From Candidatus Woesebacteria bacterium GW2011_GWB1_39_10 (GTDB taxonomy: Bacteria; Patescibacteriota; Microgenomatia; UBA8517), in NCBI GenBank assembly GCA_000993205.1, contig LBVU01000002.1:28250-92249 (forward strand): 64,000 nt of DNA, in the 5' to 3' direction. Under the pieces are notes generated by a model. It was not told the DNA's origin and ran no database searches. It saw only the letters and a list, made by a program, of their open reading frames with translations. Positions within the stretch are counted from its first letter, which is position 1, and each line of letters starts with the position of its first letter. Shown one piece after another: positions 1 to 63,483 of this stretch. A program made the translations under genes and the position numbers.

Positions 1-1463
1 AGTTAATTAATGAGTTTTCCAAGAAGGGGCAGAGTCTTACTCTCTATAAATCTGGTGATTTTTCTGATCTTTGCCGAGGAGGGCATGTAGTCCACCCAAA
101 TCAAGAGATTGCACATTTCAAATTATTGTCCATCGCCGGCGCCTATTGGAGAGGCAATGAGAAGAATAAAATGCTTACGCGCATTTATGCCACGTGTTTT
201 CCGACAAAAGAAAAGCTGGAAAAATATCTTTTTCAACAAGATGAAGCTAAAAAGAGAGATCACAGAAAATTAGGCAAGGAAATGGGTTTGTTTACAATTA
301 ATGATCAGGTTGGACAAGGTCTTACCATTTGGTTACCAAATGGTTCAACCATAAGACGCGAGATAGAAAACTTCATGGTCGCCGAACAAGAAAAGCTTGG
401 TTACAAGCACGTTTATAGTCCCCACATTGGCCAAAAATCGCTTTGGGAAAAAAGCGGACACTGGGCCCTTTATAGAGAAAAAATGTATTCACCAATGGAT
501 GTTGATGGAACGGAGTATCTTGTTAAACCAATGACATGCCCAATGCACATTCAAACATATCAATTTAAATCAAGATCTTACAGGGAGCTACCGCTAAAAA
601 TTGCCGAAATAGCATCTGTTTACAGATACGAAAAATCAGGAGAACTGAATGGACTTCTGAGAGTTCGGGCATTTACTCAGGATGATGCGCATATTTTTTG
701 CACACCTGAACAGGCAGTTGATGAATTCATTTCGGTCTTTAAATTAATTCAGAAAATATATATGACTTTTGGGTTTACTGATTACAAAGTTCGTCTTGGA
801 GTTAGATCAAAGAAAGAAAAATACCTTGGAAACGATTCTCTATGGAAAGGGGCTGAAAAGAAGGCAGTTGAGGCATTAAAGAAAGTTGGATCTGACTACT
901 TTGTATCTGAGGGCGATGCCGCCTTTTATGGTCCCAAGGCTGATTTTCTAATTAAGGATGCATTAGGACGTGAATGGCAATGTGGTACCGTTCAAGTTGA
1001 TTTCATGTTACCCGAACGATTCGGCCTCAAATATATTGACCAAGATGGTAAAGAGAAAACACCTGTTATGGTTCATAGGGCACCACTGGGTTCAATCGAA
1101 AGATTCTTGGCGATTCTTATTGAAAATTATGCCGGTAATTTTCCAACTTGGCTAACACCAGTTCAGGTAAAAATTTTGCCAATTTCTGAAAAACATCTTG
1201 GTTATGCAAGGACAGTCCTTGCTAGGCTCAAAGAAAGCGGAATTCGCGTTGAACTTGACGACAGAAACGAGAGATTGCAGGCAAAAATCCGCGATTCCCA
1301 AATGGAGAAAGTTGCCTATATGTTAATTGTGGGAGACAAAGAAATGGAAAACGATTTAGTTGCACCAAGAAGTAGAACCGGTAAAAATTTTGGTACTCAG
1401 AAATTGGATAAATTTGTCAGAAATATTTTAGATGAGATTAAAAACAAAAAATCTGAAGTGTAA
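1..1463 (+). CDS. thrS: Threonyl-tRNA synthetase, 5'-truncated by the window edge (frame is open from nt 3).
   Basis: The upstream in-frame translation reads ...DLCRGGHVVHPNQEIAHFKLLSIAGAYWRG, which matches the ThrRS catalytic core. The C-terminal anticodon-binding region is present. Confidence 0.9.
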   Translation, partial: LINEFSKKGQSLTLYKSGDFSDLCRGGHVVHPNQEIAHFKLLSIAGAYWRGNEKNKMLTRIYATCFPTKEKLEKYLFQQDEAKKRDHRKLGKEMGLFTINDQVGQGLTIWLPNGSTIRREIENFMVAEQEKLGYKHVYSPHIGQKSLWEKSGHWALYREKMYSPMDVDGTEYLVKPMTCPMHIQTYQFKSRSYRELPLKIAEIASVYRYEKSGELNGLLRVRAFTQDDAHIFCTPEQAVDEFISVFKLIQKIYMTFGFTDYKVRLGVRSKKEKYLGNDSLWKGAEKKAVEALKKVGSDYFVSEGDAAFYGPKADFLIKDALGREWQCGTVQVDFMLPERFGLKYIDQDGKEKTPVMVHRAPLGSIERFLAILIENYAGNFPTWLTPVQVKILPISEKHLGYARTVLARLKESGIRVELDDRNERLQAKIRDSQMEKVAYMLIVGDKEMENDLVAPRSRTGKNFGTQKLDKFVRNILDEIKNKKSEV

Positions 1464-10876: not shown

Positions 10877-10916
10877 ACTATCGGTTAAACTGTAGCCAGA
10901 AAGGAGGTGAAAAATT

Positions 10917-11234
10917 ATGTCAGGTACTAAACGAAAATTTACCAGAGAATTTAAACTTCAGGTTGTCACTGAAATTGAATCAGGGACTAAGACCAGAGCT
11001 CAAATTACTCGTGAATATGAATTATCAGAGGGACTAGTTACTAAGTGGGTTGCGGTCTATCGAGCTAATCCTCAAACTGCCTTTACAGGTAGACTGGTAG
11101 CCAGTGAGGAGGAAAGACTAAAAATTAAAATTAAAGAGCTTGAGTGGGCATTGGGTAGAAAGACAATGGAGGTGGAAACCCTGAAATTTACACTGGAAGG
11201 ATTAAATGTTAAAAAAGGGGGCTTTATGAAGTAG
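10917..11234 (+). CDS. IS3-family transposase OrfA (HTH DNA-binding).
   Basis: The sequence FTREFKLQVVTEIESGTKTRAQITREYELSEGLVTKWV followed by a leucine-zipper-like LKIKIKELEWAL is a classic IS3/IS911 OrfA. RBS AAGGAGGTG. Confidence 0.85.
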   Translation: MSGTKRKFTREFKLQVVTEIESGTKTRAQITREYELSEGLVTKWVAVYRANPQTAFTGRLVASEEERLKIKIKELEWALGRKTMEVETLKFTLEGLNVKKGGFMK

Positions 11235-12097
11235 CAGAAACATTTTGTCAAAAAGGACAATCTATTACAGATTTGTGTAGAACCCTACATGTCTCAAGGA
11301 GCGGGTATTATGAATATCTGAAAAACAAAAATCTTAAAAATATGGATGAAGAATTAGTTAAAAACCAAATTGAACAAATTGCCCTGGAATATCCAAGATA
11401 TGGATACAGAAGGATTACTGAGGAACTTAAAAGAAGAGATTTTATAGTTAATCACAAAAGGGTCCTAAAACTGATGCAAGAAGAAGATTTACTTTGCAAA
11501 CACAAAAAGAAGTTTATGGTTACAACTGATTCTAACCATCCACTTCCAATTTACCCAAACTTAATTAAAGGAATGATTGTGACTAGGATTAACCAAATCT
11601 GGGTGGCAGACATTACTTATATCCCCCTGACCACTGGCAAATTTGTATTTTTAGCAGTAGTACTGGATCTTTATTCAAGAAAAGTAGTTGGTTGGCATTT
11701 AGGAAGTGACTTATCATCCATTTTAGTTTGTCATGCCCTGCAGATGGCAATACTCAGCCGAAAACCACCTGCAGGGCTAACTCATCATTCAGACCGTGGA
11801 GTTCAATATGCCAGTTATGAGTATACAAATATTTTAAAACTAAATAATATTCAAATTTCTATGAGTAGAAAGGGTAATCCATATGACAATGCAGTTTGTG
11901 AAAGTTTTAACAAAACATTCAAATGGGATGAGGTTAGGCTAAATAAATACAACAATTATTTTGAAGCTAAAGAAGCCATTGCAAACTATATTGAGCAGAT
12001 TTACAATGCAAAAAGGTTACATTCAAGCCTAAACTACAGGCCACCGAATGAATTTGAAGAGAGTTTAATTAACAGTCAATTGTCTGTACGTTATTAG
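11213..12097 (+). CDS. IS3-family transposase OrfB (DDE integrase core), probably expressed as an OrfAB fusion by -1 frameshifting.
   Basis: The -1 frame opens at 11213, directly over AAAAAAG (11211-17). The rve-type motifs are LCRTLHVSRSGYY, HSDRGVQYAS and GNPYDNAVCESFN. Confidence 0.85.
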   Translation, partial: KRGLYEVAETFCQKGQSITDLCRTLHVSRSGYYEYLKNKNLKNMDEELVKNQIEQIALEYPRYGYRRITEELKRRDFIVNHKRVLKLMQEEDLLCKHKKKFMVTTDSNHPLPIYPNLIKGMIVTRINQIWVADITYIPLTTGKFVFLAVVLDLYSRKVVGWHLGSDLSSILVCHALQMAILSRKPPAGLTHHSDRGVQYASYEYTNILKLNNIQISMSRKGNPYDNAVCESFNKTFKWDEVRLNKYNNYFEAKEAIANYIEQIYNAKRLHSSLNYRPPNEFEESLINSQLSVRY

Positions 12098-12104
12098 GGG
12101 TTCA
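12075..12104 (+). repeat. IS3 right terminal inverted repeat (IRR); it overlaps the orfB C-terminus.
   Basis: The reverse complement TGAACCCCTAATAACGTACAGACAATTG matches IRL at about 19 of 24 positions and ends ...TTCA. Confidence 0.55.
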
Positions 12105-50866: not shown

Positions 50867-51478
50867 ATGCTTAAAATCATCTCCTGGTTATTAATTATTT
50901 TAGGGCTCGCTCTACTGATTTTTATTTTTGGTCCCGTTATTAAAGAAGAAACCAAATATAAACTTGGGCAAATTGCTAATGTTAAATATGTAATTGGTAC
51001 TGAACAGTTGGATACTTTTGAAAAACCGCTCACTCCTCCAAACACAGATTTCTCTGTAATTATCCCCAAAATTGGCGCCGTAGCCCCTGTTGTCGATAAT
51101 GTGGACGCTACAGACCCAAAACAATACCTTTCAGCTCTCAAAAAAGGTGTTGCCCATGCGACAGGAACTGGAATCCCAGATGAAATCGGAAATGTATACC
51201 TTTTTGCCCACTCAACGGATGCTTTCTGGAATGTTAGTTCATATAATGCCGTATTTTATCTAATAGGGAAACTTAAACCGGGAGATGAGATAGTTATTTA
51301 TTACCAAAACAGGTTAATAACATACCAAGTTTATGACAAGAAAGTAGTTAGTGCCGACTCGTCCCAATATTTGGGCACACTAACACCCGACGAAAAGACA
51401 TTAACACTCCAAACATGTTATCCGCCTGGAACAACTTTTGAAAGACTTATAGTACTGGCAAAGCAGACGAGCCCTTGA
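50867..51478 (+). CDS. Sortase (transpeptidase).
   Basis: It has an N-terminal TM, the His region VYLFAHST, the active-site LTLQTCYP (the TLxTC motif) and an Arg near the C-terminus. Confidence 0.75.
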   Translation: MLKIISWLLIILGLALLIFIFGPVIKEETKYKLGQIANVKYVIGTEQLDTFEKPLTPPNTDFSVIIPKIGAVAPVVDNVDATDPKQYLSALKKGVAHATGTGIPDEIGNVYLFAHSTDAFWNVSSYNAVFYLIGKLKPGDEIVIYYQNRLITYQVYDKKVVSADSSQYLGTLTPDEKTLTLQTCYPPGTTFERLIVLAKQTSP

Positions 51479-51526
51479 CATTGTGGTAACTGATAGTATA
51501 ATCACGACATAAAGATAAATATTGAT

Positions 51527-54500
51527 GTGAAAAAAACCTTATTTCAAAAAACAGCCTCATTCATTGCCACCATTGCGGTTTTAATTAATTCGTTTGGAGC
51601 CCCCCTGACAGTTATAGCTCAGGAAATTACCCCAAGTCCCACACCTGCTGAAACGAGTTCACCGACACCTGAGGCTACTGCTTCGACTGAGCTCACCGCT
51701 TCGCCTACTGCTCAGTCCGATGCAACACCCGCCGAAACTGCAAGTCCGACACCTGAAATTACCCCAACCCCGACTGATACAGTTACACCAGCCCCAACTG
51801 ATACTCCCATTGCAACACAAGCACCGGAAAGTAACCCTACGGTTCAAGGTCCTCCGGCTTCCGATCAACCAACTTCAAGCCCAACAGCAACCCCGATAGT
51901 GACACCTGCTCAGCCTGAAGTAGAGGGAAGTTTAACAACAGAGATAGTAGAAACAAATTTGTTCTCAGAAACACTTCAGGAAAATAGCTGGTTTAACCTT
52001 GTCACAGATAAACTTGATTATGCGCCCACTGAGGCCGCAGTAATTACCGGAACCGGTTTCGCGGCAGGGAAAACTTACAATCTAACGGTAAGTTCGGTAG
52101 ACGAACCGGCAACCACAACCACGGTTGAAGTAATCGCGGATCTAAACGGTTCATTTGCTTACGTTTACCAACTCGACGGCAACTACCGACCAAATTATTC
52201 GGTTGAAGTTAAAAGTGATGGAGTGATTGTTGCCTCAACGACCTTTACCGACTCGCCGGTTTCCGGCACCCTTCTAGACTCTGACGGAGCAAACGATGAA
52301 CCGGGACAAAAAGATTTAACCAAACTTTTTTTTGATTATACGAATATCCCCACCTCAATAAATATCGGGTGGGACTGGGACGACTCTGGTTTCTCTGGAG
52401 CAAACACGGGTGATGCCTGTGCATTATTTGACACAGACACTGATGGTTATGCCAATTATGCTCTTTGTGTTACTGTTGACAATGACCCGGCAACTTTTCA
52501 GACAACCAGTCTTTACTCCTGTAACGATACCCGTTCTGACAGATGTCCAAGCGAGGCGCCAATTTCCCTGTTCACTTCTACTTGCGGTGCCAATGTTCAG
52601 GCAACTGACCCCTTCCCCGGACCTCCAGCAGCTCAACAGGGCGATGATTATCCAAACGACTCTGTAGCCAGCTGCACCGCTCAATTATCCGAAGTGGGAG
52701 GAGCTTCGTCAAAACTACTTGATGTTTGTTCTTTTCCATCGTCAATTTCCCATTCTGACCCTTCGGACTGTATAGTTGCCTCGACAGCTTCTCAAACAGG
52801 ATTTTTGGAGGTTAAAAAAGTATTAGACCCCACAAGCGATACCGGGAAATTTGATTTGCAAATTGACGGAACTACTTACGCTTTTGACGCAACTCATAAC
52901 GGTACAACCGGAGAAAAAATTGTGGATGCTGACAGCCACACTGTCAGTGAAACCGCCGGAACAGGTACGACATTAAGCAATTACACTTCGTCAGTTGTTT
53001 GTAGAGATACCAATGGCACCGGGAGCGTAGTCTCAACTACGGGAAGTGCCCCTTCTTGGACAGTTGGCGTTGGAAACGGAGACGATATTGTCTGCACTAT
53101 CACAAACACTCTCCGGCAAGCACATCTTATCGTTGTAAAACATGTAATTAACGATAATGGAGGCACTGCGGTCGCCGGCAATTTTACTTTAGATTCAGGA
53201 GGAACCAACGACACCCCGGATAATTTTGCCGGAGTTGAATCACCCGGAACCGACGTCACACTTGATGCAGGTTCATATAACGTGACCGAGTCCGGCCCAG
53301 GTGGATACTCTGCAAACTATTCAGCAGATTGTTCCGGATCGATTTCGGCCGGACAAACAAAAACCTGTACAGTAACAAACGATGACCAAGCTGCAACCTT
53401 ACATGTTATTAAAGTAGTAACAAACGATAACGGTGGAACAAAAACATTTACTGATTTTTCATTCCAAGTAAATGGGGGTGGAGCAACCGCCTTTGAAGCA
53501 GATGGACAAAACGATCTTACCGTAAACGCAGGAACATATAGTGTGACAGAACCTGGAGTTGCAGGTTATTCTACAACTTACGATAACTGTTCAAACCTCG
53601 TTATTTCAAATGGGGGAAGTGCCACCTGTACTATTACCAACGATGATATTCAACCCAAACTCACACTTACAAAAATTGTAACAAACGACAATGGGGGGAA
53701 TGCGGTAGTTAACGATTTTCCGCTATTTGTAGGAGCAACCGGAGTTACAAGTGGTGTTCAAAACGGATTTGATGTCGGTAGTTATACCGCTTCTGAAACA
53801 AATCTTACAGGTTACACTGCAGGTTCATGGGGAGGGGACTGTGCAACTGATGGTTCAATTACGCTCGCTGCAGGAGATGTAAAGGCTTGCAGCATTACCA
53901 ACAACGACCAAGCTGCACACATTGTCTTGATTAAAAATGTCACAAATGACAATGGAGGTTCAGCAGGCGCAAACGATTTTGGGTTGACTGTTGGTAGTTC
54001 TTCTGTCACTTCGAGTAGTACAACTGATGTAAATTCTAACGTATCAACTACGTTAAACGAGACAGGTCTGGCCGGATATGATTTTGTTTCAATTACAGGA
54101 GACGCAAAATGTCCGGCTGTCTTGGGTGGAACGGTAACACTTAATGAAGGGGAAACCGTAACGTGTACCATAACGAATGATGATATTGCCCCAACACTTA
54201 AGCTTACAAAAAGCGTCACCAACGACAATGGTGGAACAGCAGTAGCCGGGAGTTGGACACTTGGAGCGGATGGTGATAGCGGATTCCAAGATTTGGGTGA
54301 TTCAACAACTTTCCATACAGTAAAAGCGGGTGTGAGTTACGCGCTTTCCGAGTCCGGATTAGCAGGGTATGCTCAAGACGGAAATTGGTCGTGTGATGGT
54401 GGTGATCAGAACGGGAGCAACATAGCTCTCGGGTTAGCGCAAGACATAATTTGTACGGTTACAAACAATGACATCGCCCCATCGCTTACATTAATCAAAG

Positions 54501-57500
54501 CTTTGGTGACCAACAATGGTGGAAACGACACGGAGTCAGACTGGACTTTGACTGCTTCCGGTCCAACCGGCTTCAGCGGAGTTGGGTCATCTATCAGTAA
54601 TGGTGCGTCTTTTTATACCGGAACTTACGACCTTTCCGAGTCGGGTCCCGGAGGATACATAGCCAGTAACTGGGTTTGTACAGGCGGAACACAAAACGAC
54701 GGCAATACCATAACTTTAAGTTTGGGGCAGTCCGCTACTTGTACCATTACCAACGATGATGTTCCTGCCAGTATTACACTCACTAAAGTGGTCCAAAACA
54801 ATTTTGGTGGAACAGCCGGAGTAGACGATTTCGGTCTATCGATAGGCGGAACGTCAGTCTCTTCCGGTCAAACATTAAGTGTCAATTCCAATAGTTCTTA
54901 TACCCTTAATGAAGCGGGATTGTCTGGGTATTCATTCGTTTCCCTAACAGGCGACGATCTTTGTCCGGACGTACTTGGCGGAACGGTTACTCTTGATGAA
55001 GGGGGAACTATCTCTTGTATAATCACAAACAGTGACGTTCAACCACAGCTGACAGTCATAAAACATGTAATAAATGATAATGGCGGAAGTTCTTTAGCCG
55101 GAGCCTTTACAATAAATGTAACAGGCACAAGTGTTTCAACCACCTCCTTCGGCGGATCAGAATCCGGAACGACAGTAACTTTAAATGCCGGTTCATATAC
55201 TGTCGACGAAGATCTGTTTGCGGGGTACTCAAAAACCCTTGGCGCAGACTGTTTTGGAACAATTGCGGTCGGCGAACACAAAACCTGTACTATTACCAAC
55301 AACGATATTGCTCCAACACTTACATACGTTAAATCAGTAACTAATAATTATGGTGGAACTCTTGGTGCAACTGATTTTCCATTATTCATAAATGGAAGTC
55401 AGGTCATAACTGGCACTCCAAATACTTTATTAGCCAATTACTTATACACTCTTACAGAAACTCAGCAAACTGGATATACCGGCGGTTATTTTACAGGTGA
55501 TTGCTCAGCCGATGGATCAATTGTTCTTTCAGTTGGGGACAATAAAACGTGTTATATAAGTAATACCGACGTTCAACCAAAACTCACAATTACCAAGGTT
55601 GTAATTAATGATGATGGTGGTACAAAAGAGATTACCGATTTTCCTCTTTTTGTAAACTCAACTAGTGTAAAAAGCGGTGTACAAAATGGATTCAACGCTG
55701 ATAGCTACACTGTTAGTGAGACAGGTATCTCAGGATATACATCCACAATCTCAGGGGACTGTACAGCAAACGGGTCAGTAACATTGGCTGTCGGGGATGT
55801 GAAATCTTGCGTCATTACCAACGACGATATTGCTCCTAGATTAACATTGGTAAAAACAGTGGTAAACGACAATGGCGGTGACAAGGTTGTTTCAGATTTT
55901 ATACTTAAAATAAACGACACATCTGTTATAAGCGGTGAAGAAAACATACTTTCTGCTGGAACTTATACAGCAAGTGAGATTGAACTGCCCGGGTATGCTG
56001 CAACTGTTTGGGGCGGGGACTGCAACAGAGACGGAAGCATTACTTTAAACCCCGGAGACAATAAGTCCTGCACAATCACAAACGATGATCAACCGGCAAC
56101 ACTACGTGTAGTAAAAGTTATTGATCCTGGAAATACAGGAGCAACTGAAAGTTTCGGTGATTTCTGGTTCGAGGTAAACGGGGGTGGAACATCCGCCTTT
56201 GAAGCAGACGGACAAAACGACCTGACCGTTGATGCGGGAACTTACAATGTTACAGAGAAGGGAGTTACCGGTTATTCAACTTCTTACGACAACTGTTCAG
56301 ACGTTGCTATTCCGAACGGAGGAGAGGCAACTTGTACTGTTACAAATACGGCGATTGCGCCAACACTGACTGTTATCAAAATCGTCGAGAACGGAAATAC
56401 AGGAGCGACTTTCAGCTCTTCCGATTTTCAAATGAAAGTTGACGACGCAAACGTTCCTCAAAACTCTGCACAAGATGAAACCATCGGCTCTCATACAGTA
56501 AGCGAATTGGGCCCTTCCGGATACACTTCGGTGTTTAGTGGAGATTGCAACACTGACGGAAATGTGACACTTGCCCTCGCCGATGACAAAACTTGCACTA
56601 TTACCAACACTGCTATTGACCCAACGCTAACTTTGATCAAAACGGTTGTAAACGATAACGGTGGACAAAAAGAAGTATCAGATTTTCCTCTTTTCATAGA
56701 TGACAACGGTGTAACGAGTGGTGAATCCCGTGTTCAAACAGTCGGTACGCACACAGCAACTGAGACCTCTGACGCAGGGTACACGGCTTCAGTTTGGGGT
56801 GGGGACTGTGCAGAGAACGGAACCATTACTCTTTCACTGGGCGACGATAAAATCTGTACAATTACCAACGATGATAATCCGGGAACCCTTATAGTCAAAA
56901 AAGTAATCGACGGTGGAGAAGCCAGTTTTCAAGATTTCTCATTCCAAATCAACGGGGGCGAACCAGTCGGTTTTGACTCGGAGGACGGTCAGAATGAGGA
57001 AACCGTAGACGCAGGGACTTATTCCGTTACAGAACCAAAGGTTGAAAATTATGTCACTTCCTACGACAACTGTACCAGAATTCAGATTGCAAACGGGGAG
57101 AGTGCAACTTGTACCATAACCAATATTTGGCAAAATCCTCAAATTTCAATCATTAAAGAGAACAACGCCGGCGGTGGGGTTGGCGCAGGGTCAACCGTAA
57201 TCTACACCATAAAGGTATCAAACAACGGTAATGTAAATTTTGATAACGTACTTGTAACCGACTTCTTACCCGGAGGATTTACGTATGTAGTCGGATCAAC
57301 GACAGGGGCAACATTTATCAACGTCCTTGGTTCAAAATTGACTTGGAATATTGACAACCTGGCACCGGAAGAAACTGCCACCATCACATATCAGGTTACG
57401 ACAAATTCCGCTCTAACCGACGGTGATTATAAAAACTTTGCAACCTGCCAAGCTACTTACAATGAAGAAGAAACAATAAGCTGCGACCAGGTAAATTCAA

Positions 57501-57679
57501 CTGTAAAAATCGGCCACGGAATTAGTTACGGCGGAAATTTGCAGGGTCAGGTCTTGGGAGCATCCACAGAACTTCCCGCAACAGGGAGCCCGACATTACT
57601 TTTGATCCTATCTTTAGGGTTACTCGGAACCGGATTATACTTAAAAGGTTACGACAAAAAACGAAATGTTAAAAATTAA
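51527..57679 (+). CDS. Giant (2050 aa) cell-surface protein with ~17 tandem ~95-aa repeat domains and a C-terminal LPATG cell-wall sorting signal; GTG start.
   Basis: It has a signal peptide and a Thr/Pro-rich N-terminal linker. The repeats read ...TNDD(I/Q)AP(T/K)LT(L/V)IK.V.NDNGG.... The C-terminus is GQVLGASTELPATGSPTLLLILSLGLLGTGLYLKGYDKKRNVKN, that is LPXTG followed by a TM helix and a basic tail. Confidence 0.8.
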   Translation: MKKTLFQKTASFIATIAVLINSFGAPLTVIAQEITPSPTPAETSSPTPEATASTELTASPTAQSDATPAETASPTPEITPTPTDTVTPAPTDTPIATQAPESNPTVQGPPASDQPTSSPTATPIVTPAQPEVEGSLTTEIVETNLFSETLQENSWFNLVTDKLDYAPTEAAVITGTGFAAGKTYNLTVSSVDEPATTTTVEVIADLNGSFAYVYQLDGNYRPNYSVEVKSDGVIVASTTFTDSPVSGTLLDSDGANDEPGQKDLTKLFFDYTNIPTSINIGWDWDDSGFSGANTGDACALFDTDTDGYANYALCVTVDNDPATFQTTSLYSCNDTRSDRCPSEAPISLFTSTCGANVQATDPFPGPPAAQQGDDYPNDSVASCTAQLSEVGGASSKLLDVCSFPSSISHSDPSDCIVASTASQTGFLEVKKVLDPTSDTGKFDLQIDGTTYAFDATHNGTTGEKIVDADSHTVSETAGTGTTLSNYTSSVVCRDTNGTGSVVSTTGSAPSWTVGVGNGDDIVCTITNTLRQAHLIVVKHVINDNGGTAVAGNFTLDSGGTNDTPDNFAGVESPGTDVTLDAGSYNVTESGPGGYSANYSADCSGSISAGQTKTCTVTNDDQAATLHVIKVVTNDNGGTKTFTDFSFQVNGGGATAFEADGQNDLTVNAGTYSVTEPGVAGYSTTYDNCSNLVISNGGSATCTITNDDIQPKLTLTKIVTNDNGGNAVVNDFPLFVGATGVTSGVQNGFDVGSYTASETNLTGYTAGSWGGDCATDGSITLAAGDVKACSITNNDQAAHIVLIKNVTNDNGGSAGANDFGLTVGSSSVTSSSTTDVNSNVSTTLNETGLAGYDFVSITGDAKCPAVLGGTVTLNEGETVTCTITNDDIAPTLKLTKSVTNDNGGTAVAGSWTLGADGDSGFQDLGDSTTFHTVKAGVSYALSESGLAGYAQDGNWSCDGGDQNGSNIALGLAQDIICTVTNNDIAPSLTLIKALVTNNGGNDTESDWTLTASGPTGFSGVGSSISNGASFYTGTYDLSESGPGGYIASNWVCTGGTQNDGNTITLSLGQSATCTITNDDVPASITLTKVVQNNFGGTAGVDDFGLSIGGTSVSSGQTLSVNSNSSYTLNEAGLSGYSFVSLTGDDLCPDVLGGTVTLDEGGTISCIITNSDVQPQLTVIKHVINDNGGSSLAGAFTINVTGTSVSTTSFGGSESGTTVTLNAGSYTVDEDLFAGYSKTLGADCFGTIAVGEHKTCTITNNDIAPTLTYVKSVTNNYGGTLGATDFPLFINGSQVITGTPNTLLANYLYTLTETQQTGYTGGYFTGDCSADGSIVLSVGDNKTCYISNTDVQPKLTITKVVINDDGGTKEITDFPLFVNSTSVKSGVQNGFNADSYTVSETGISGYTSTISGDCTANGSVTLAVGDVKSCVITNDDIAPRLTLVKTVVNDNGGDKVVSDFILKINDTSVISGEENILSAGTYTASEIELPGYAATVWGGDCNRDGSITLNPGDNKSCTITNDDQPATLRVVKVIDPGNTGATESFGDFWFEVNGGGTSAFEADGQNDLTVDAGTYNVTEKGVTGYSTSYDNCSDVAIPNGGEATCTVTNTAIAPTLTVIKIVENGNTGATFSSSDFQMKVDDANVPQNSAQDETIGSHTVSELGPSGYTSVFSGDCNTDGNVTLALADDKTCTITNTAIDPTLTLIKTVVNDNGGQKEVSDFPLFIDDNGVTSGESRVQTVGTHTATETSDAGYTASVWGGDCAENGTITLSLGDDKICTITNDDNPGTLIVKKVIDGGEASFQDFSFQINGGEPVGFDSEDGQNEETVDAGTYSVTEPKVENYVTSYDNCTRIQIANGESATCTITNIWQNPQISIIKENNAGGGVGAGSTVIYTIKVSNNGNVNFDNVLVTDFLPGGFTYVVGSTTGATFINVLGSKLTWNIDNLAPEETATITYQVTTNSALTDGDYKNFATCQATYNEEETISCDQVNSTVKIGHGISYGGNLQGQVLGASTELPATGSPTLLLILSLGLLGTGLYLKGYDKKRNVKN

Positions 57680-58565
57680 ATCAATCACCGGCTTATTTAT
57701 TTGCTCATTCGCTTATTTACTTATTTGCTTATTCGGTGTGAGGCCGGCCTACGCCTCAGTTCTTTCAATCCAAACTCTGCCTTCCTATATAAACACCAAC
57801 AACTTCAAACTTTCCTGTACTAGTGATGGGGGAACGTTCCAATTTGAGGTTAGTGTGCACGGCGGAGCATTTACGACTTTTGGACCGGTAATCAACACAA
57901 GTACGGAGCCTTGCATAGTTCAAGTCGATTCATCTATTGTAAACAGCCAGACCGACTATACATTCAGGATTGGTGGATTCACAACCTCAACTATTTATGA
58001 CACAAACGGTCCCGCCGCACCATCAGGATACTACAAAGAGGGTTTGAGTAATGGCTTCAAAATTCACTGGACCAACCCAAGCGACAGTGATTTTTCTAAA
58101 GTAAAAATCTACCGCGGTGAAACTGCTGACTTTTCTGCCGACAGTTCACATGAGATTACAACCCAACCCGGTGGAGCGGGGAGCCTAATGACTTACGACG
58201 ATATATTCGCAGTGGATTCTTCCAAAACTTATTTTTACGATCTAAGAGCAATTGACTATGCGGGAAATTCCTCTGATCTTGTGGGTGATGGATCTTCCAC
58301 AAGCTCAACAACAGTTACTACAGCCAGTCCTAAGGCCGGAACAGACAAAGTGACACAATTGCCCAAGGGAAACGGCGGTAGTGTCTTAGGAACCGAGACA
58401 AATGGCACTCCAACTCCTTCCGCCAGTCCCACTGAGATAGGAGGGCCAGTTAGCACCAATCCCGGAATCATGAAATGGATTCTGACACACAAAAAGATAT
58501 CTTTAGGGGTTGCTTTCGGACTTATAATAATAAGCTACCTGCTCTTCAGAAGGAAAAAATCTTAA
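57666..58565 (+). CDS. Surface protein with a signal peptide and a C-terminal TM anchor.
   Basis: It has an N-terminal signal, and a C-terminal hydrophobic helix plus RRKKS tail preceded by a Ser/Thr/Pro-rich stalk. Confidence 0.45.
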   Translation: MLKIKSITGLFICSFAYLLICLFGVRPAYASVLSIQTLPSYINTNNFKLSCTSDGGTFQFEVSVHGGAFTTFGPVINTSTEPCIVQVDSSIVNSQTDYTFRIGGFTTSTIYDTNGPAAPSGYYKEGLSNGFKIHWTNPSDSDFSKVKIYRGETADFSADSSHEITTQPGGAGSLMTYDDIFAVDSSKTYFYDLRAIDYAGNSSDLVGDGSSTSSTTVTTASPKAGTDKVTQLPKGNGGSVLGTETNGTPTPSASPTEIGGPVSTNPGIMKWILTHKKISLGVAFGLIIISYLLFRRKKS

Positions 58566-58629
58566 CCTATAATTTTGCCTCTTGACAAGCAGAGAAAGTA
58601 CCGCTATTATCCCATCATAGTTTTATATT

Positions 58630-59373
58630 ATGACTAAGTTTAACTCAGGCAAAGCATCTATTTTAGCTCTCACTTCCGCTTTTGCGGTCGCGGCTTTTTT
58701 TCTCGGAAAATCTTTTACTTTGATTCTAGCCTCTCCTGCCGGTGACGTTCCAAAAGCCTACTGTCATGCAGCTGGACTGACAGGAACCACCCACTTCAAT
58801 TATCACTACAATAAAGCTTGGACGGCCCACTTTTATGACAACGGAAGTCCTAAAGCAGGACACGAAGACGACTTTTACACATTAATCGGCGATAGAGATT
58901 GTGACGGTCAAGTTGACTCAACACCAACCCCTACCCCAACAGATTGTGACGGAGATTGCCCAACTGCAACCCCCGAACCAACCGATGACGTCTGTCCAAA
59001 TATCGAGGGTGTTCAAGACTCTGTCCCTGAAGGATATTTTGTAAATAATGATGATAACTGTGTCGAAGGGGAAGAACCAACTCCCGAGCCTACACCAACA
59101 CCAAATCCTGACGTTTGTGCAAATATCGACGGTGTTCAAACCGGTGTACCTAGCGGGTTACACATGGATGCCGGAAACGTCAACTGTGTTTCGTTCTCTG
59201 ATTCAAATCCTCCCGAAGTTCCATATACACCTCAGGGTCAAGTCCTTGGAGCCTCTACAATGGCAGGGACAGGGTCATTTGCTGAAAACTTATATATGGG
59301 TATAATGGGTGTAGGTGCAATTCTCACTCTTAAAGGCGCAAAGAACTTCAAAAAAGCTTTCAAAAAAGCTTAA
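58630..59373 (+). CDS. Surface protein and candidate sortase substrate with a variant sorting signal.
   Basis: It has an N-terminal TM/signal and a TP-rich linker. The C-terminus GQVLGASTMAGTGSFAENLYMGIMGVGAILTLKGAKNFKK parallels the giant protein's GQVLGAST-ELPATG-S, followed by a hydrophobic helix and a basic tail. Confidence 0.45.
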   Translation: MTKFNSGKASILALTSAFAVAAFFLGKSFTLILASPAGDVPKAYCHAAGLTGTTHFNYHYNKAWTAHFYDNGSPKAGHEDDFYTLIGDRDCDGQVDSTPTPTPTDCDGDCPTATPEPTDDVCPNIEGVQDSVPEGYFVNNDDNCVEGEEPTPEPTPTPNPDVCANIDGVQTGVPSGLHMDAGNVNCVSFSDSNPPEVPYTPQGQVLGASTMAGTGSFAENLYMGIMGVGAILTLKGAKNFKKAFKKA

Positions 59374-59911
59374 GATCTTCCGTGGTCCGCTTTTTTTAAC
59401 CTTTCTAGGATTGTCCATATTTACCTTTGGAATTTACAACTATTATAAAGTCCGAATACTTTCGTTTGACTCTGTTCCTCCGGAAGCTAATAAATCTATT
59501 GAAAATGTTGACTCTCCTGTAGAAATAATTATTCCCTCAATCAAGATTGACCTCAAAGTCGAGCCGGGACAGATTAAAGACGGTGTCTGGCAAATCTCAG
59601 GGTCTTCAGCTACCTTTCTTACAACCTCAGCCGCCCCGAGGACGGAAGGCAATATGGTGATCTATGGTCACAACAAAAAAGTTATTTTTGGCAATCTGCC
59701 TTATTTAAGCCTGGGACAAAGAATTGTCATCAAGACAAAAAGTGGAAAAATCTATAATTATGTGGTCGATCAAAAATACTTTGTTGGCCCCGATAGGGTA
59801 GACTTGGTTTCTCCGTCCGATAAAGAGGAGCTTACTATATATACCTGCTACGGACTTTTTGATGGTCAGCGCGCAGTAATCAAAGCCAGGCCACTCAAGG
59901 ACAGTCCTTGA
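59315..59911 (+). CDS. Sortase (second copy).
   Basis: It has an N-terminal TM, MVIYGHN (His), LTIYTCY (the TLxTC motif) and a conserved Arg. Its stop codon lies inside a REP-like palindrome. Confidence 0.7.
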   Translation: MQFSLLKAQRTSKKLSKKLKIFRGPLFLTFLGLSIFTFGIYNYYKVRILSFDSVPPEANKSIENVDSPVEIIIPSIKIDLKVEPGQIKDGVWQISGSSATFLTTSAAPRTEGNMVIYGHNKKVIFGNLPYLSLGQRIVIKTKSGKIYNYVVDQKYFVGPDRVDLVSPSDKEELTIYTCYGLFDGQRAVIKARPLKDSP

Positions 59912-59912
59912 A
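59895..59912. repeat. REP-like palindromic element copy 1 (CTCAAGGACAGTCCTTGA).
   Basis: A CAAGGA / TCCTTG stem around CAG. Four copies cluster around the Y1 transposase gene. Confidence 0.6.
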
Positions 59913-59930
59913 AACTTCATTTTGTGCCTA

Positions 59931-59950
59931 CTCAAGGACAGTCCTTGCAA
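59931..59950. repeat. REP-like palindromic element copy 2.
   Basis: The sequence CTCAAGGACAGTCCTTGCAA lies 19 nt after copy 1. Confidence 0.6.
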
Positions 59951-60628
59951 TTACTCTAAGATAAGGTCTCCCAGAAATATTGCACTATCCTTCTTGTAAT
60001 CTTCAACAAAACTTTTATACGAATTCACTTTTTTAAATTCCGGTAAAACTTTATTGTTAAAGAACGAGAGAACTGTTTCCGGCTTAATCCAAGGTGTTTG
60101 TCTCTTTCCTAAATATTCAGGGTAAGAGGAATAAGCGCTTAGCAAATCGTCTGTATACTCTCTTGGATTTAGATGGATGTATCTACTTAAATGTAGTAGG
60201 TATTCTTCGCTTGCAACCAATACTGCCTTATATCGACCTTGAAATAGCGATCCAACACGATCATATTTTTTATTGAAATACATTGAGTATCTAGTCATAA
60301 GAGATCTCATTAGTCCTTGAATCGAGTCGAAATCCTTTTGTTTAATCAAAAGGTGAAAATGGTTGGGCATTAGACAATAAGCAATTAGGTCAATTTTTTC
60401 AAAATAACTTTTTACAGGCCTTCTTATGCTCTGCAAGGACAGTCCTTGCATAATATATTTCGTTCTCAGATCTTGTTCCTCAAGCGGGGAAAAAGCCTCT
60501 TTTATATAACGTAAAAAAACTTTGTAATCCTGACTATCTTCAAAAATTATCCTTTTTTCAACCCCGCGGTTATAAATATGATAAAAGCCTTTTTCGACAT
60601 AAATTTTCAAGGAATTTCTGGAAGGCAT
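59951..60628 (-). CDS. HUH Y1 tyrosine transposase (IS200/IS605 TnpA-like / REP-associated tyrosine transposase, RAYT-like).
   Basis: It has the HUH motif LMPNHFHLLI and catalytic-Tyr regions LSRYIHLNP and YKAVLV. It is flanked by REP-like palindromes on both sides. Confidence 0.65.
   Translation of the reverse strand: MPSRNSLKIYVEKGFYHIYNRGVEKRIIFEDSQDYKVFLRYIKEAFSPLEEQDLRTKYIMQGLSLQSIRRPVKSYFEKIDLIAYCLMPNHFHLLIKQKDFDSIQGLMRSLMTRYSMYFNKKYDRVGSLFQGRYKAVLVASEEYLLHLSRYIHLNPREYTDDLLSAYSSYPEYLGKRQTPWIKPETVLSFFNNKVLPEFKKVNSYKSFVEDYKKDSAIFLGDLILE
60431..60450. repeat. REP-like palindrome copy 3, inside the Y1 transposase coding sequence.
   Basis: The sequence is CTGCAAGGACAGTCCTTGCA, with an 8-bp stem. 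Confidence 0.5.
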
Positions 60629-60644
60629 AATTTAAATGTAATAC

Positions 60645-60665
60645 TCAAGGACAGTCCTTGCAAGT
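60645..60665. repeat. REP-like palindrome copy 4, 17 nt upstream of the Y1 transposase start.
   Basis: The sequence is CTCAAGGACAGTCCTTGCAAG. Confidence 0.6.
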
Positions 60666-60849
60666 ATCTCCCCATTGCTTCACGAATAACCTTGAGGTAA
60701 AATAATTTAAAGCTAAATAGCCTCGATTTTTTGTTTGGAACAAAAAATAAATTCGAGTTAATAAATCCGAAATACGAAACAATATTTAAATTCTAAATTT
60801 CAAATAGAAAAGTTTCGAATTTCGTGCTTCGGATTTCGTATTTAAATGT

Positions 60850-63483
60850 ATGGATATCGGTAAAATTCAACAAACAGAGATAACTACAGAGCTTTCCAAG
60901 TCATATTTGGATTACGCAATGAGCGTTATAGTGGCCCGAGCCTTACCCGACGTACGGGACGGACTTAAACCAGTTCACAGGAGAATTTTATACGCAATGC
61001 ATTTGATGGGGCTTCATTTTGTAGGCAGCTCCACAACAAAATCCGCCAAAGTCGTCGGAGAAGTTTTGGGTAAATATCATCCGCACGGAGACATGGCTGT
61101 TTACGATGCCATGGTCCGCTTGGCTCAAATCTTTTCAATGCGCTATCCGTTGGTCCATGGACAGGGAAACTTTGGGTCTGTTGACGGCGACCCGCCCGCG
61201 GCCATGAGGTATACCGAAGTTAAACTTGCAAAAATCGCAGACATGATGCTTGCAGATATGGAGAAAGAAACAGTAGACTTCACGGACAATTTTGACGCAA
61301 CGCTTAAAGAACCGGTTTTTCTTCCCGCAGTTTTACCAAATTTACTTCTTATGGGTAGCGAAGGTATTGCAGTCGGAATGGCTACAAAAATTCCTCCACA
61401 TAATTTAACTGAATTGGTTGATGGCATAACCGCTATGATCAAAAAAGGCAAAGTTATAACTGAACAAAAGGCGCAGGAAGAGCAAACCGATTTTGTTATT
61501 AAAAAGATCAATCTGGTAGCTTCAGGTGAGTCTAAAGCCTTAACTGAGGCCGAAGTTAACCCAACAGCAGTTTCTTTTGAAAGCGAAATAGATATTGATG
61601 AACTAACGGATATTATTCCCGGCCCGGACTTTCCTACAGGGGGAGCAATTTATGACGCCAACGGACTTAAAGAACTTTACGCGACAGGCCGTGGCAAAAT
61701 AGTTGTCCGTGGTATTGCTGAAATTGTAGAGGGTGCAAAAGGCAAACAACAAATTATAATCAGCGAACTTCCGTACCAGGTAAATAAGAGTGAACTTGTA
61801 GCCAAAATCGCCGAACTTGTAAAAGATAAAAAAGTGGTAGGAATTAGCGACCTTCGGGACGAAAGTGACAAAGACGGAATGAGAGTCGCGATTGATCTTA
61901 AACGCGACGCAAAACCCAAGTCGGTTTTGAATAATATTTTCAAACACACCAGGCTTCAAAGCAGCTTCCCGGCAAATTTTGTTGCCCTGGTAGATGGCAC
62001 CCCACACACATTAAATCTTAAAACAATTCTTGTTGAGTACGTTAAGCATAGACAAAGAGTTGTTATAAGACGCACAATCTTTGAGTTAACAGAAGCCAAA
62101 AAACGAGCTCATATTTTAGAAGGGCTTAAAATCGCGCTCGATAATTTGGATGCCGTAATCAAAACCATCAGAGAGAGTAAAACTCAGGAGGATGCCAAGA
62201 AAAACTTAATTGAAAGATTTAAGTTGTCCGAAATTCAAGCAACTGCAATTCTTGATATGCAGCTTAGAAGATTGGCAGCACTTGAACGAGAAAAAATTGA
62301 AAAAGAATACGCAGAAATCAAGAAATTGATTGATCAGCTTATTGCGATTTTGAAAGATCCTAAACAGGTTTTGAATATCATTGTTAAGGAATTAGGGGAG
62401 TTAAAAGAAAAATACGGTGACAAAAGAAGAACTAAAATTTATAAAAACCCGCTCGGGGAAATCAGCGAAGAAGATTTGGTGGCCAAGGAGGAAACATTAA
62501 TCACCGTTACAAAAACAGGATACGTTAAACGCCTTTCTGCAACAAGTTACCGCGCACAACGCAGGGGAGGAAAGGGTGTAATCGGGATGGCAACTAAAGA
62601 AGAGGACGAGATTGAACACATCTTATCCGCTACAACTCATGATACAATTCTTTTCTTTACCAATAAAGGCCGTGTTTTCGGGCTAAAAGCATGGGAAATT
62701 CCGGAAAGCAGCAGGCAGGCAAAGGGCCAGGCCCTTGTCAATTTGTTGAATCTTGAACAAGGCGAAGAAATAAAATCCATTCTTCCGCTTTCGAAAGAAC
62801 TCGGCATTAAGAATTTGGTAATGGCTACTAAAAACGGACTTATTAAAAAGACAGGTATCGACGAATTTGAAAATTTGAGATCATCGGGTCTTATTGCAAT
62901 CAAGCTTAGAGACAATGACATGCTTATTTCTGTTCACCCGACAACTGGCGACGATCACATTATTCTTCTTACCCGAAATGCCAAGTCAATTAGATTTCCT
63001 GAGACAAATGCACGTCCAATGGGGCGCGCCACAACGGGAGTCACCGGCATAAAAATGGACACAGGGGATGAACTGATTGGAATGGAAGTATTTCCTGCAA
63101 AAGAAAATATCCCAACCGACAAAAGGAAAAAGTTCTACCGCGATATTTTAACCATTGCCGAACACGGACTTGGAAAACGCACCCCAATTCATCTTTTCCC
63201 GGTACAAAAAAGGTCGGGTAAGGGAGTTAAAGCAGCTGTAGTTTCAGCAAAAATCGGGAATTTGAAAACCGCCGCGATGGTTACCGAAAAATATGATCAG
63301 GTGATTATTACCAGCAAAATGGGTCAGGTCATTAAACTACCTTTGAAAAATATTCCTCAACTTGGCAGGGCCACTCAAGGAGTCATCTTGATGAGATTTG
63401 CTGACAAAGGAGATAGTGTCGCCGCCGCGGCCGTTTTGGAAAAAGGGGTAGACGAAGAAGATGAAGAAAATATCGAAAAGTAG
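60850..63483 (+). CDS. gyrA: DNA gyrase subunit A.
   Basis: It has [29 protein letters not shown] with the catalytic Tyr region, beta-pinwheel C-terminal repeats and an acidic tail. It is 877 aa. Confidence 0.95.

Follow-up and report, generated by a model that had tools for sequence, protein, structure and literature searches.

A 64-kb stretch of the Candidatus Woesebacteria bacterium GW2011_GWB1_39_10 genome (contig LBVU01000002.1, positions 28,250 to 92,249 of the forward strand; "the window" below is this whole stretch) carries, between a sortase gene and gyrA, a gene for a Y1 HUH nuclease that is accompanied by copies of one short palindrome. The locus is probably a REPtron-like unit, that is, a vertically inherited single-copy Y1 HUH endonuclease gene kept together with cognate GC-rich hairpins that act as its single-stranded DNA (ssDNA) substrates. 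In relatives, one family-wide hairpin occurs with the gene in a variant particular to each lineage, placed upstream of the gene, just after its stop codon and in frame at one or two permissive loops, and a few extra copies are found elsewhere, part of them inside open reading frames (ORFs). This co-variation was measured at 74 loci with complete gene and flanks, which were obtained from a metagenome scan and compared by script for shared exact words of at least 13 nt. At 55 of the 74 loci, the 70 nt before the gene and the 100 nt after it had such a word in common, compared with 5 of 582 control pairs taken from different loci.

Hairpins of the nuclease locus

The exact 15-mer CAAGGACAGTCCTTG occurs five times on the + strand of the window (1207, 59896, 59933, 60434 and 60646), four times at the nuclease locus and once inside thrS. 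Matches with up to two mismatches averaged 0.12 in shuffled sequence and no shuffle reached the observed count, and a search of the 64 kb for looser variants (e.g. GGAC.GTCC) returned none beyond the five copies. All five are identically oriented with the central A on the + strand, and their predicted ssDNA folds have stems of 6-8 bp, a CAG loop of 3 nt and energies between -4.2 and -7.5 kcal/mol. The features of the locus, and the copy in thrS, are as follows.

59315..59911, + strand: sortase gene (Pfam Sortase, E 1.8e-20)
59896..59910: downstream hairpin 2, a direct repeat of downstream hairpin 1 at 37-nt spacing, in the 3' end of the sortase gene
59933..59947: downstream hairpin 1, ending 3 nt past the nuclease stop codon
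59951..60628, - strand: Y1 HUH nuclease gene (RAYT-like), 225 aa, Pfam Y1_Tnp
60432..60450: internal hairpin, a 19-nt perfect palindrome (TGCAAGGAC A GTCCTTGCA) in nuclease codons 60-66 (MQGLSLQ)
60646..60660: upstream hairpin, its edge 18 nt before the nuclease ATG, ssDNA fold -5.9 kcal/mol (z -3.8)
1205..1222: dispersed copy TGCAAGGACAGTCCTTGC inside thrS, coding for Y-A-R-T-V-L-A

Two of the hairpins thus lie between the convergent sortase and nuclease genes, and the 15-mer at 60434, within ORF 59951..60628, is translated as QGLSL. A first-pass annotation of the same DNA had described palindromes with a 6-8 bp stem and CAG loop that flank a transposase gene, with one copy inside its coding sequence (CDS). 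Exact matching and folding confirmed the stem, the loop, the internal copy and the four copies at the locus, while the positions given for them were 1-3 nt off and the thrS copy had been missed. The flanked arrangement also stood, being conserved in relatives and co-varying with the gene.

On four contigs from relatives (L001-L004), homologues at 81, 75, 71 and 71% protein identity adjoin gyrA as in the window. In the first three, CAAGGACAGTCCTTG recurs at three matching positions (some 32 nt before the gene, at codon 60-61 and directly past the stop), with the upstream and internal copies 212-213 bp apart. The post-stop position is occupied by a hairpin in all four, and the 37-nt downstream doublet is also present in L001. 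The 16-nt island TTGCAAGGACTGTCCT (gene strand) is the only invariant part of the upstream intergenic region among the five syntenic genomes. Around the internal copy, four genomes share the 26-nt run ATTATGCAAGGACTGTCCTTGCAGAG without a difference, and their next longest identical run is 10 nt. As synonymous sites between these genes are saturated (see below), this invariance indicates that the DNA of the internal copy is constrained, or continually re-homogenised, beyond what the protein requires. The internal copy is an ancient, family-wide feature and not a recent accident of the source genome. More distant homologues have other hairpins in the same places (AGGAC(W)GTCCT in L004, AAGGCC(W)GGCCTT in L005 and CAGGGAACATCCCTG in L006), and the residues encoded at the internal site shift with the hairpin variant, through QGLSL, RGQSY, KGQAF and KGTSF.

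The co-variation extends to the CDS, which shared a word with its own upstream flank at 41 of the 74 loci (controls, 5/582). Internal copies were present at 46 of these loci, almost exclusively in two hot spots with 27 cases each. The first, codons 50-69, lies after helix alpha1 and ahead of the HUH strand, and the second, codons 140-169, comes right after the tyrosine helix; the nuclease gene of the window has an internal copy at the first hot spot only. Alignment of 40 upstream hairpins on their centres gave the family consensus yTTGCAAGG-nn-N-nn-CCTTGCAAr, and 35 of the 40 have GG/CC at positions +-3 and +-4, whereas the five apical bases are hypervariable. Beside these 40 hairpins no GTAG tag and no conserved cleavage or guide motif was found, the stem alone being conserved; the flanks of the window hairpin read cTTG...AGTA. 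Relative to the upstream copy, downstream copies are in the same orientation in 26 cases and flipped in 9, and internal copies in 21 and 11, respectively. The copies thus show an orientation bias and not the strict same-strand arrangement of IS608, which was considered and rejected.

In several relatives (L158, L161, L146, L156, L173, L181 and L183) the upstream hairpins form inverted doublets, 25-38-nt perfect palindromes such as AGGGTTGAACCCTAATAGGGTTCAACCCT. These doublets are REPIN-like, whereas the downstream doublet of the window is a direct repeat.

The nuclease and its relatives

Only residues 78-152 of the nuclease match Pfam Y1_Tnp (E 2.3e-10). Its sole NCBIfam match is the REP_Tyr_transpos equivalog (NF047646) at 44.1 bits, below the cut-off of 80, and no IS200 model of NCBIfam matched. 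An alignment of 28 homologues showed H90, H92, Q130, Y150, N154 and P155 to be invariant, together with the motifs NHFH (89-92), LFQGRY (128-133) and RYIHLNP (149-155). The HUH motif is H90-F-H92, and its residues and the tyrosine are intact; Y150 is likely the catalytic tyrosine, judging from the corresponding YIxxNP motif in TnpA_REP. No tnpB partner was found at the locus, where the neighbours are gyrA and the sortase gene, and tblastn detected no second nuclease copy in the window; two other 225-aa ORFs of the window (17515 and 18890) proved unrelated to the nuclease. The first-pass annotation had called the protein RAYT-type rather than a classical IS200 TnpA and had proposed a comparison with both families. 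The NCBIfam match, the NHFH, FQ and YIHLNP motifs and the lack of tnpB support that call, with the reservation that the RAYT model, although the only one to match, was hit below its cut-off. The combination it had named as contrary evidence, a palindrome restricted to the locus with an IS200-type TnpA and a tnpB gene, is not what was found.

The AlphaFold model has a mean pLDDT of 60 (75-80 in the core) and low confidence for residues 167-225. Residues 54-68, encoded around the internal hairpin, form a peripheral beta-hairpin in the model, with pLDDT values under 50. The internal copy falls in a variable loop that follows helix alpha1 and precedes the HUH strand. A fold search with the model matched E. 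coli TnpA_REP, IS608 TnpA and ISDra2 TnpA (4er8, 2vjv and 2xm3), the best query TM-score being 0.41 for 4er8 (E. coli TnpA_REP), and these matches do not separate IS608-type from REP-type proteins. A profile search of PDB sequences gave marginal ISDra2 matches only (E 0.07), and no C-terminal helix-turn-helix (HTH) domain was matched by Pfam in residues 156-225, even at E<=10.

Candidatus Woesebacteria bacterium GW2011_GWA2_40_7 has an annotated protein of identical sequence, full-length homologues number in the thousands in Woesebacteria and Patescibacteria, and an exhaustive phmmer search (E<=1e-30) gave 399 clusters at 50% identity. The sortase gene lies on the other side of the nuclease gene in the window and L001-L003, and the homologues in L005 and L006 have different neighbours. 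Among the nuclease genes of the window and L001-L004, synonymous sites are saturated (pS 0.75-0.88) and dN is 0.12-0.27. Together with the synteny with gyrA, these values indicate that the gene is old at its present position and under purifying selection. One nuclease gene in 64 kb, a gyrA-adjacent position kept in five genomes and no tnpB make up, as far as gene content can tell, the profile of a domesticated gene and not of an active insertion sequence.

Many relatives are longer, at 350-450 aa, and combine the Y1 domain with a predicted transmembrane helix and a C-terminal bacterial SH3_3 domain (P0256, P0257, P0258, P0261, P0270, P0276, P0281, P0291 and L169:9968-11080 among them). In several of these (P0261, P0291 and L169) the position of the catalytic tyrosine is occupied by C or H, and L169 retains only an upstream TTGCAAGGTCTCTCCTTTCAAG motif. 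Judged by domain content and residues, this branch looks like an exapted, probably non-catalytic, membrane-anchored arm of an HUH "transposase" family. The family would therefore have been exapted more than once, and the function of a single member should not be assumed.

Copies outside the locus and in neighboring genes

In the 82 kb of the source genome that were examined (the window with 9.5 kb and 8.4 kb of flank), five copies were found, of which only the thrS copy is off-locus. The suggestion of the first-pass annotation that the palindrome might be dispersed genome-wide is thus upheld in that a copy exists away from the locus, and not upheld as an abundant REP (repetitive extragenic palindromic) family, there being one extra copy in 82 kb. 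In relatives, the 598 kb of flank that were searched for each locus's own hairpin contained about 16 far copies. Far copies, some paired as inverted doublets and some within ORFs, occur in L131, L160, L177, L187 and L154. Perfect 23-mers lie 7.5 kb and 4.2 kb from the nuclease gene in L187, a far copy is inside a 523-aa ORF in L177, and an inverted doublet is inside a 2621-aa ORF in L131. In L160, two intergenic inverted doublets share a compensated variant, GTTTC/GAAAC, where the gene-flanking copies have GTCTC/GAGAC, as expected of replicating REPIN-like doublets. GC skew was tried as a guide to replication direction for a lagging-strand bias; the skew tracked the orientation of the genes and was of no use for this.

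A scan of 185,579 species genomes for the core CAAGGACWGTCCTTG returned at least 119 stretches. Among the 119 matches listed, 58 are stretches from the candidate phyla radiation (CPR)/Patescibacteria, covering many classes, and several genomes have the core on three or more contigs. CPR genomes are by estimate a small share of the database, and on that estimate the core would be strongly over-represented in them. In the CPR matches listed, the core usually tips a longer hairpin, and the lower stem of this hairpin varies from copy to copy and remains complementary. The mean perfect stem extension among the matches listed is 3.7 bp in CPR and 1.1 bp in other phyla, and most of the listed CPR core copies are intergenic, 36% of them being in ORFs of at least 150 codons, compared with 80% of random positions. 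Distant nuclease homologues (29-54% identity) are flanked by the identical core in at least eight of the listed stretches, and L125 has five core copies, one of them internal to its nuclease homologue. Outside CPR, the core was seen in Acidobacteria G2_35 (L088:7901 and L103:1497, two contigs of one genome) and in an Actinomycetota metagenome-assembled genome (L053:6709). These copies are embedded in a common longer hairpin, CGTTGT/GGTTGT-core-ACGACG/ACAACC, and may represent a further REP-like family that shares the apical sequence.

Hairpin copies lie within two host genes. Downstream hairpin 2 encodes the end of the sortase, K-D-S-P, and the TG of its TGA stop. In the alignment, the sortase of the window ends KARPLKDSP* and those of L001-L003 end KAKPV* or KAKLI*, from which it follows that the second downstream hairpin replaced the original stop and added four residues. 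The remodelling of this C-terminus that the first-pass annotation had put forward is therefore borne out, with the stop supplied by the hairpin. In thrS, existing codons were replaced and the length is unchanged relative to homologues. The closest threonyl-tRNA synthetase (ThrRS; L207, 72% identity) reads YAKSVVEK, is encoded by unrelated DNA and has no palindrome there. The ThrRS of L206 (60% amino acid and 45% third-position identity), from a sister sample of L002, has the same palindrome, as TATGCAAGGACTGTCCTTGCAGAA, at exactly the same codons. Going by these alignments, the patch in the essential gene thrS is a replacement of equal length that has been conserved. Simple insertion is inadequate to account for it, and templated overwriting or site selection is indicated.

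The surroundings of the locus have further features of their own. The sortase gene belongs to a pilus-like cluster (50867-59911), in which the sortases 50867..51478 and 59315..59911 bracket a 2050-aa SpaA/CLIPPER-domain protein (51527..57679). This is followed by two smaller proteins that both have a hydrophobic segment at the C-terminus and a basic tail and are likely sortase substrates by their predicted architecture. Between the nuclease gene and gyrA (60705-60748) lies a hairpin, AGCTAAATAGCCT, that is better formed in relatives as AGGCTAnnnTAGCCT; on the + strand it is followed by TTTTTTGTTT and then by a perfect 10-bp inverted repeat, ATTTTTTGTT/AACAAAAAAT. By its sequence this element is terminator-like for + strand transcripts, and if it is a terminator, the nuclease cassette sits between the sortase operon and its terminator. 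Upstream of gyrA (ATG 60850), clusters of inverted TTTCG/CGAAA pentamers (AAATCCGAAATACGAAAC at 60763-60780 and GTTTCGAATTTCGTGCTTCGGATTTCGTATTT at 60812-60843), separated by an AT-rich spacer, may be a gyrA regulatory site. An IS3-family transposase pair (HTH_Tnp_1, then rve) at about 10900-12100 of the window (L209:19349-20529), beside Peptidase_M20-like genes, is an ordinary insertion sequence with no relation to the palindromes.

Interpretation and relation to known systems

By analogy with E. coli TnpA_REP and with the TnpA proteins of IS608 and ISDra2, the nuclease would bind the hairpin in ssDNA exposed during replication or transcription, nick beside it through Y150 and re-join the strands. 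Such nicking and re-joining could occasionally seed or overwrite hairpin copies, and overwriting would keep the copies within a genome identical (concerted evolution) and divergent between lineages. Copies would persist only where they are tolerated, as in intergenic DNA, at gene ends (the sortase stop) and in surface loops (of its own gene and in a ThrRS helix). The upstream copy and the strongly conserved internal copy leave room for the speculation that the nuclease may also regulate its own gene.

Several points weigh against the REPtron-like interpretation. The nuclease scores 44 bits where the NCBIfam RAYT equivalog demands 80, the copy number is low (five in 82 kb, four of them at the locus), and the hairpin has neither the classical REP GTAG guide nor a conserved cleavage motif. 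The proposed promoter at the upstream copy, TTGCAA-17-TACATT, matches at 8 of 12 positions, under the scan threshold of 9, and was not called. The relatives that lack the tyrosine and are fused to transmembrane and SH3 segments suggest that non-catalytic roles exist in the family, and the same-length replacement in thrS is not explained by a simple cut-and-paste model. Finally, the mobility of the hairpins or of the unit is deduced from sequence only.

An alternative is a regulatory explanation, in which the hairpins are mainly cis-regulatory operators or RNA structures, the nuclease is an autoregulating binder of DNA or RNA hairpins that no longer moves DNA, and the far copies are relics or extra targets. 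The position of the upstream copy 18-35 nt before the ATG, over the promoter-like sequence, agrees with it, as do the conservation of the internal and upstream copies far beyond that of neutral sites, their constant 212-213 bp spacing, the upstream TTGCAAGG...CCTT motif retained by catalytically dead SH3-fused relatives and the persistence of the thrS copy between species. Regulation alone, however, needs neither the HUH motif nor the tyrosine, both invariant in the window's branch, and it does not account for copies within unrelated ORFs, for hairpin sequences that turn over between lineages at all positions together or for far inverted doublets that have their own common variant, like replicating REPINs. 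The promoter match is also weak, and we consider this explanation unlikely. The locus could instead be an autonomous IS200-type insertion sequence, made up of hairpin ends and tnpA, that inserted between the sortase gene and gyrA and is still mobile as a whole. The unit measures about 750 bp, near the roughly 0.7 kb of IS200, its two ends carry like hairpins, usually in the same orientation (26 same, 9 flipped), the fold matches IS608 and ISDra2 TnpA, and the neighbours differ in L005 and L006. It is nevertheless single-copy in the window and holds the same gyrA-side position in five genomes whose synonymous sites are saturated. Its 225-aa protein has a conserved C-terminal extension, RAYT-type motifs and no IS200 match in NCBIfam, and solitary hairpins occur away from any gene copy. 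A mobile element of this kind is therefore quite improbable.

It is more improbable still, to the point that we give it hardly any weight, that the palindromes are unrelated to the Y1 protein, being either a chance repeat or ordinary terminators or mRNA-stabilising hairpins that serve the neighboring genes. Two copies do lie between convergent genes, and one terminator-like call was made on the + strand, at the internal hairpin (60432-60450). No T-runs follow the intergenic copies in the sequence, though, and an Rfam search of 58500-61500 at E<=1 matched no family. The chance expectation of 0.12 matches, the co-variation with the gene (55/74 against 5/582) and the copies within the CDS contradict this explanation.

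The REPtron-like reading is closest to the E. coli-type system of TnpA_REP/RAYT and REPs (PDB 4ER8; Nunvar 2010, Ton-Hoang 2012, Messing 2012, Bertels 2017). There, a single-copy, vertically inherited Y1 HUH gene (which the nuclease gene of the window probably is as well) is likewise flanked by a cognate hairpin that co-evolves with it, and extra copies are mostly extragenic and sometimes form inverted doublets. The stop codon of a neighboring gene can come from the hairpin (PMC3733652), and REPs that supply stop codons and that lie within ORFs are documented (PMC3733652). The window's family differs in its short hairpin (7-9 bp stem) without a 5' GTAG tag, in its very low copy number in the sequence examined, as opposed to the tens to hundreds of classical REPs, in its longer protein (225 aa) that falls under the NCBIfam equivalog cut-off and in its CPR/Patescibacteria host. 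Host genomes in this group are about 1 Mb.

Low abundance of flanking repeats has been reported for RAYT groups 1 and 4 (PMC5581495), at 12-14 copies. In-frame REPs inside tnpA_REP have been described as a "unique feature" of subclass 2.4 (Quentin et al. 2018, PMC6006769), and with this subclass (RAYT group 4, of Cyanobacteria and Bacteroidetes) the window's family shares in-frame cognate hairpins in a variable peripheral loop in addition to flanking ones. Subclass 2.4 has the motifs WQ and YIxNNP and takes its insertions in the stretch from HuH to Y, whereas the window's family has FQ and YIHLNP, and one of its hot spots precedes the HUH strand and the other follows the tyrosine helix. By motifs and length only, the protein resembles subclass 2.1 (RAYT group 1, TIRYT; Di Nocera 2013; Quentin 2018), with which it shares NH[YF]H, FQ, Y[IV]HLNP and SS, the SS being conserved in the C-terminal extension, and a length of about 230 aa against the published ~238 (PMC6006769 Table 1). 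Subclass 2.1 is reported to have no REPs or to have long terminal inverted repeats (GGGGWSAS), and to have a C-terminal HTH (Bac_DnaA_C, HTH_23 or HTH_28) (PMC6006769). In contrast, the window's gene has short hairpins at either end and within it, and its protein showed no HTH.

IS200/IS605 elements (IS200, IS608 and ISDra2) likewise combine the HUH/Y1 fold with hairpins at both ends of a tnpA-sized unit, their subterminal hairpins being recognised as ssDNA. The window's unit differs from them in being syntenic across species, in lacking tnpB and multiple copies and in having hairpins that also occur alone. Rickettsia palindromic elements (RPEs) and intragenic REPs also place in-frame palindromes inside protein genes, housekeeping genes included. 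RPEs are insertions of 100-150 bp with no known dedicated enzyme, whereas the patches of the window's family measure 15-24 nt, and the thrS copy, unlike an RPE, swaps codons at constant length. The window's family is set apart by motifs like those of subclass 2.1, which is reported as REP-less, by the other positions of its internal copies, by a short, untagged hairpin with a variable tip, by the low copy number and by the host group. A search of the accessible literature found no paper that connects REP/RAYT with CPR bacteria, and the locus would place a REP/RAYT-type system in a bacterial group for which the papers searched describe none. The first-pass annotation had raised this possibility for a CPR-like genome; it stands as far as a REPtron-like system goes, and is qualified by the low copy number, the missing GTAG and the score below cut-off.

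It is also conceivable, though we regard it as doubtful, that the hairpins inside genes are not tolerated debris and are instead functional cis-elements, either selected for or forced on the gene by continual templated copying, maintained across hundreds of Patescibacteria lineages and extending to the essential thrS. If this were true, the enzyme would recognise copies in its own promoter region, in two loops of its CDS and at its 3' end, and the gene would be self-regulating or self-homogenising, with the protein sequence of the loops dictated by DNA structure. The 26-nt invariant run, the two hot spots and the thrS patch raise the question of whether a DNA structure can override codon drift.

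REP/RAYT is the best-known case of a domesticated transposase that lives with a population of mini-elements, and it has been studied almost only in Proteobacteria and Cyanobacteria. The CPR case would mean that this logic survives extreme genome reduction, with a hairpin family of few members, and in so small a system every hairpin copy can be tracked. HUH enzymes serve as ssDNA-tagging tools, and the hypervariable tip on a constant AAGG/CCTT stem would offer a natural series for the specificity of an HUH enzyme.

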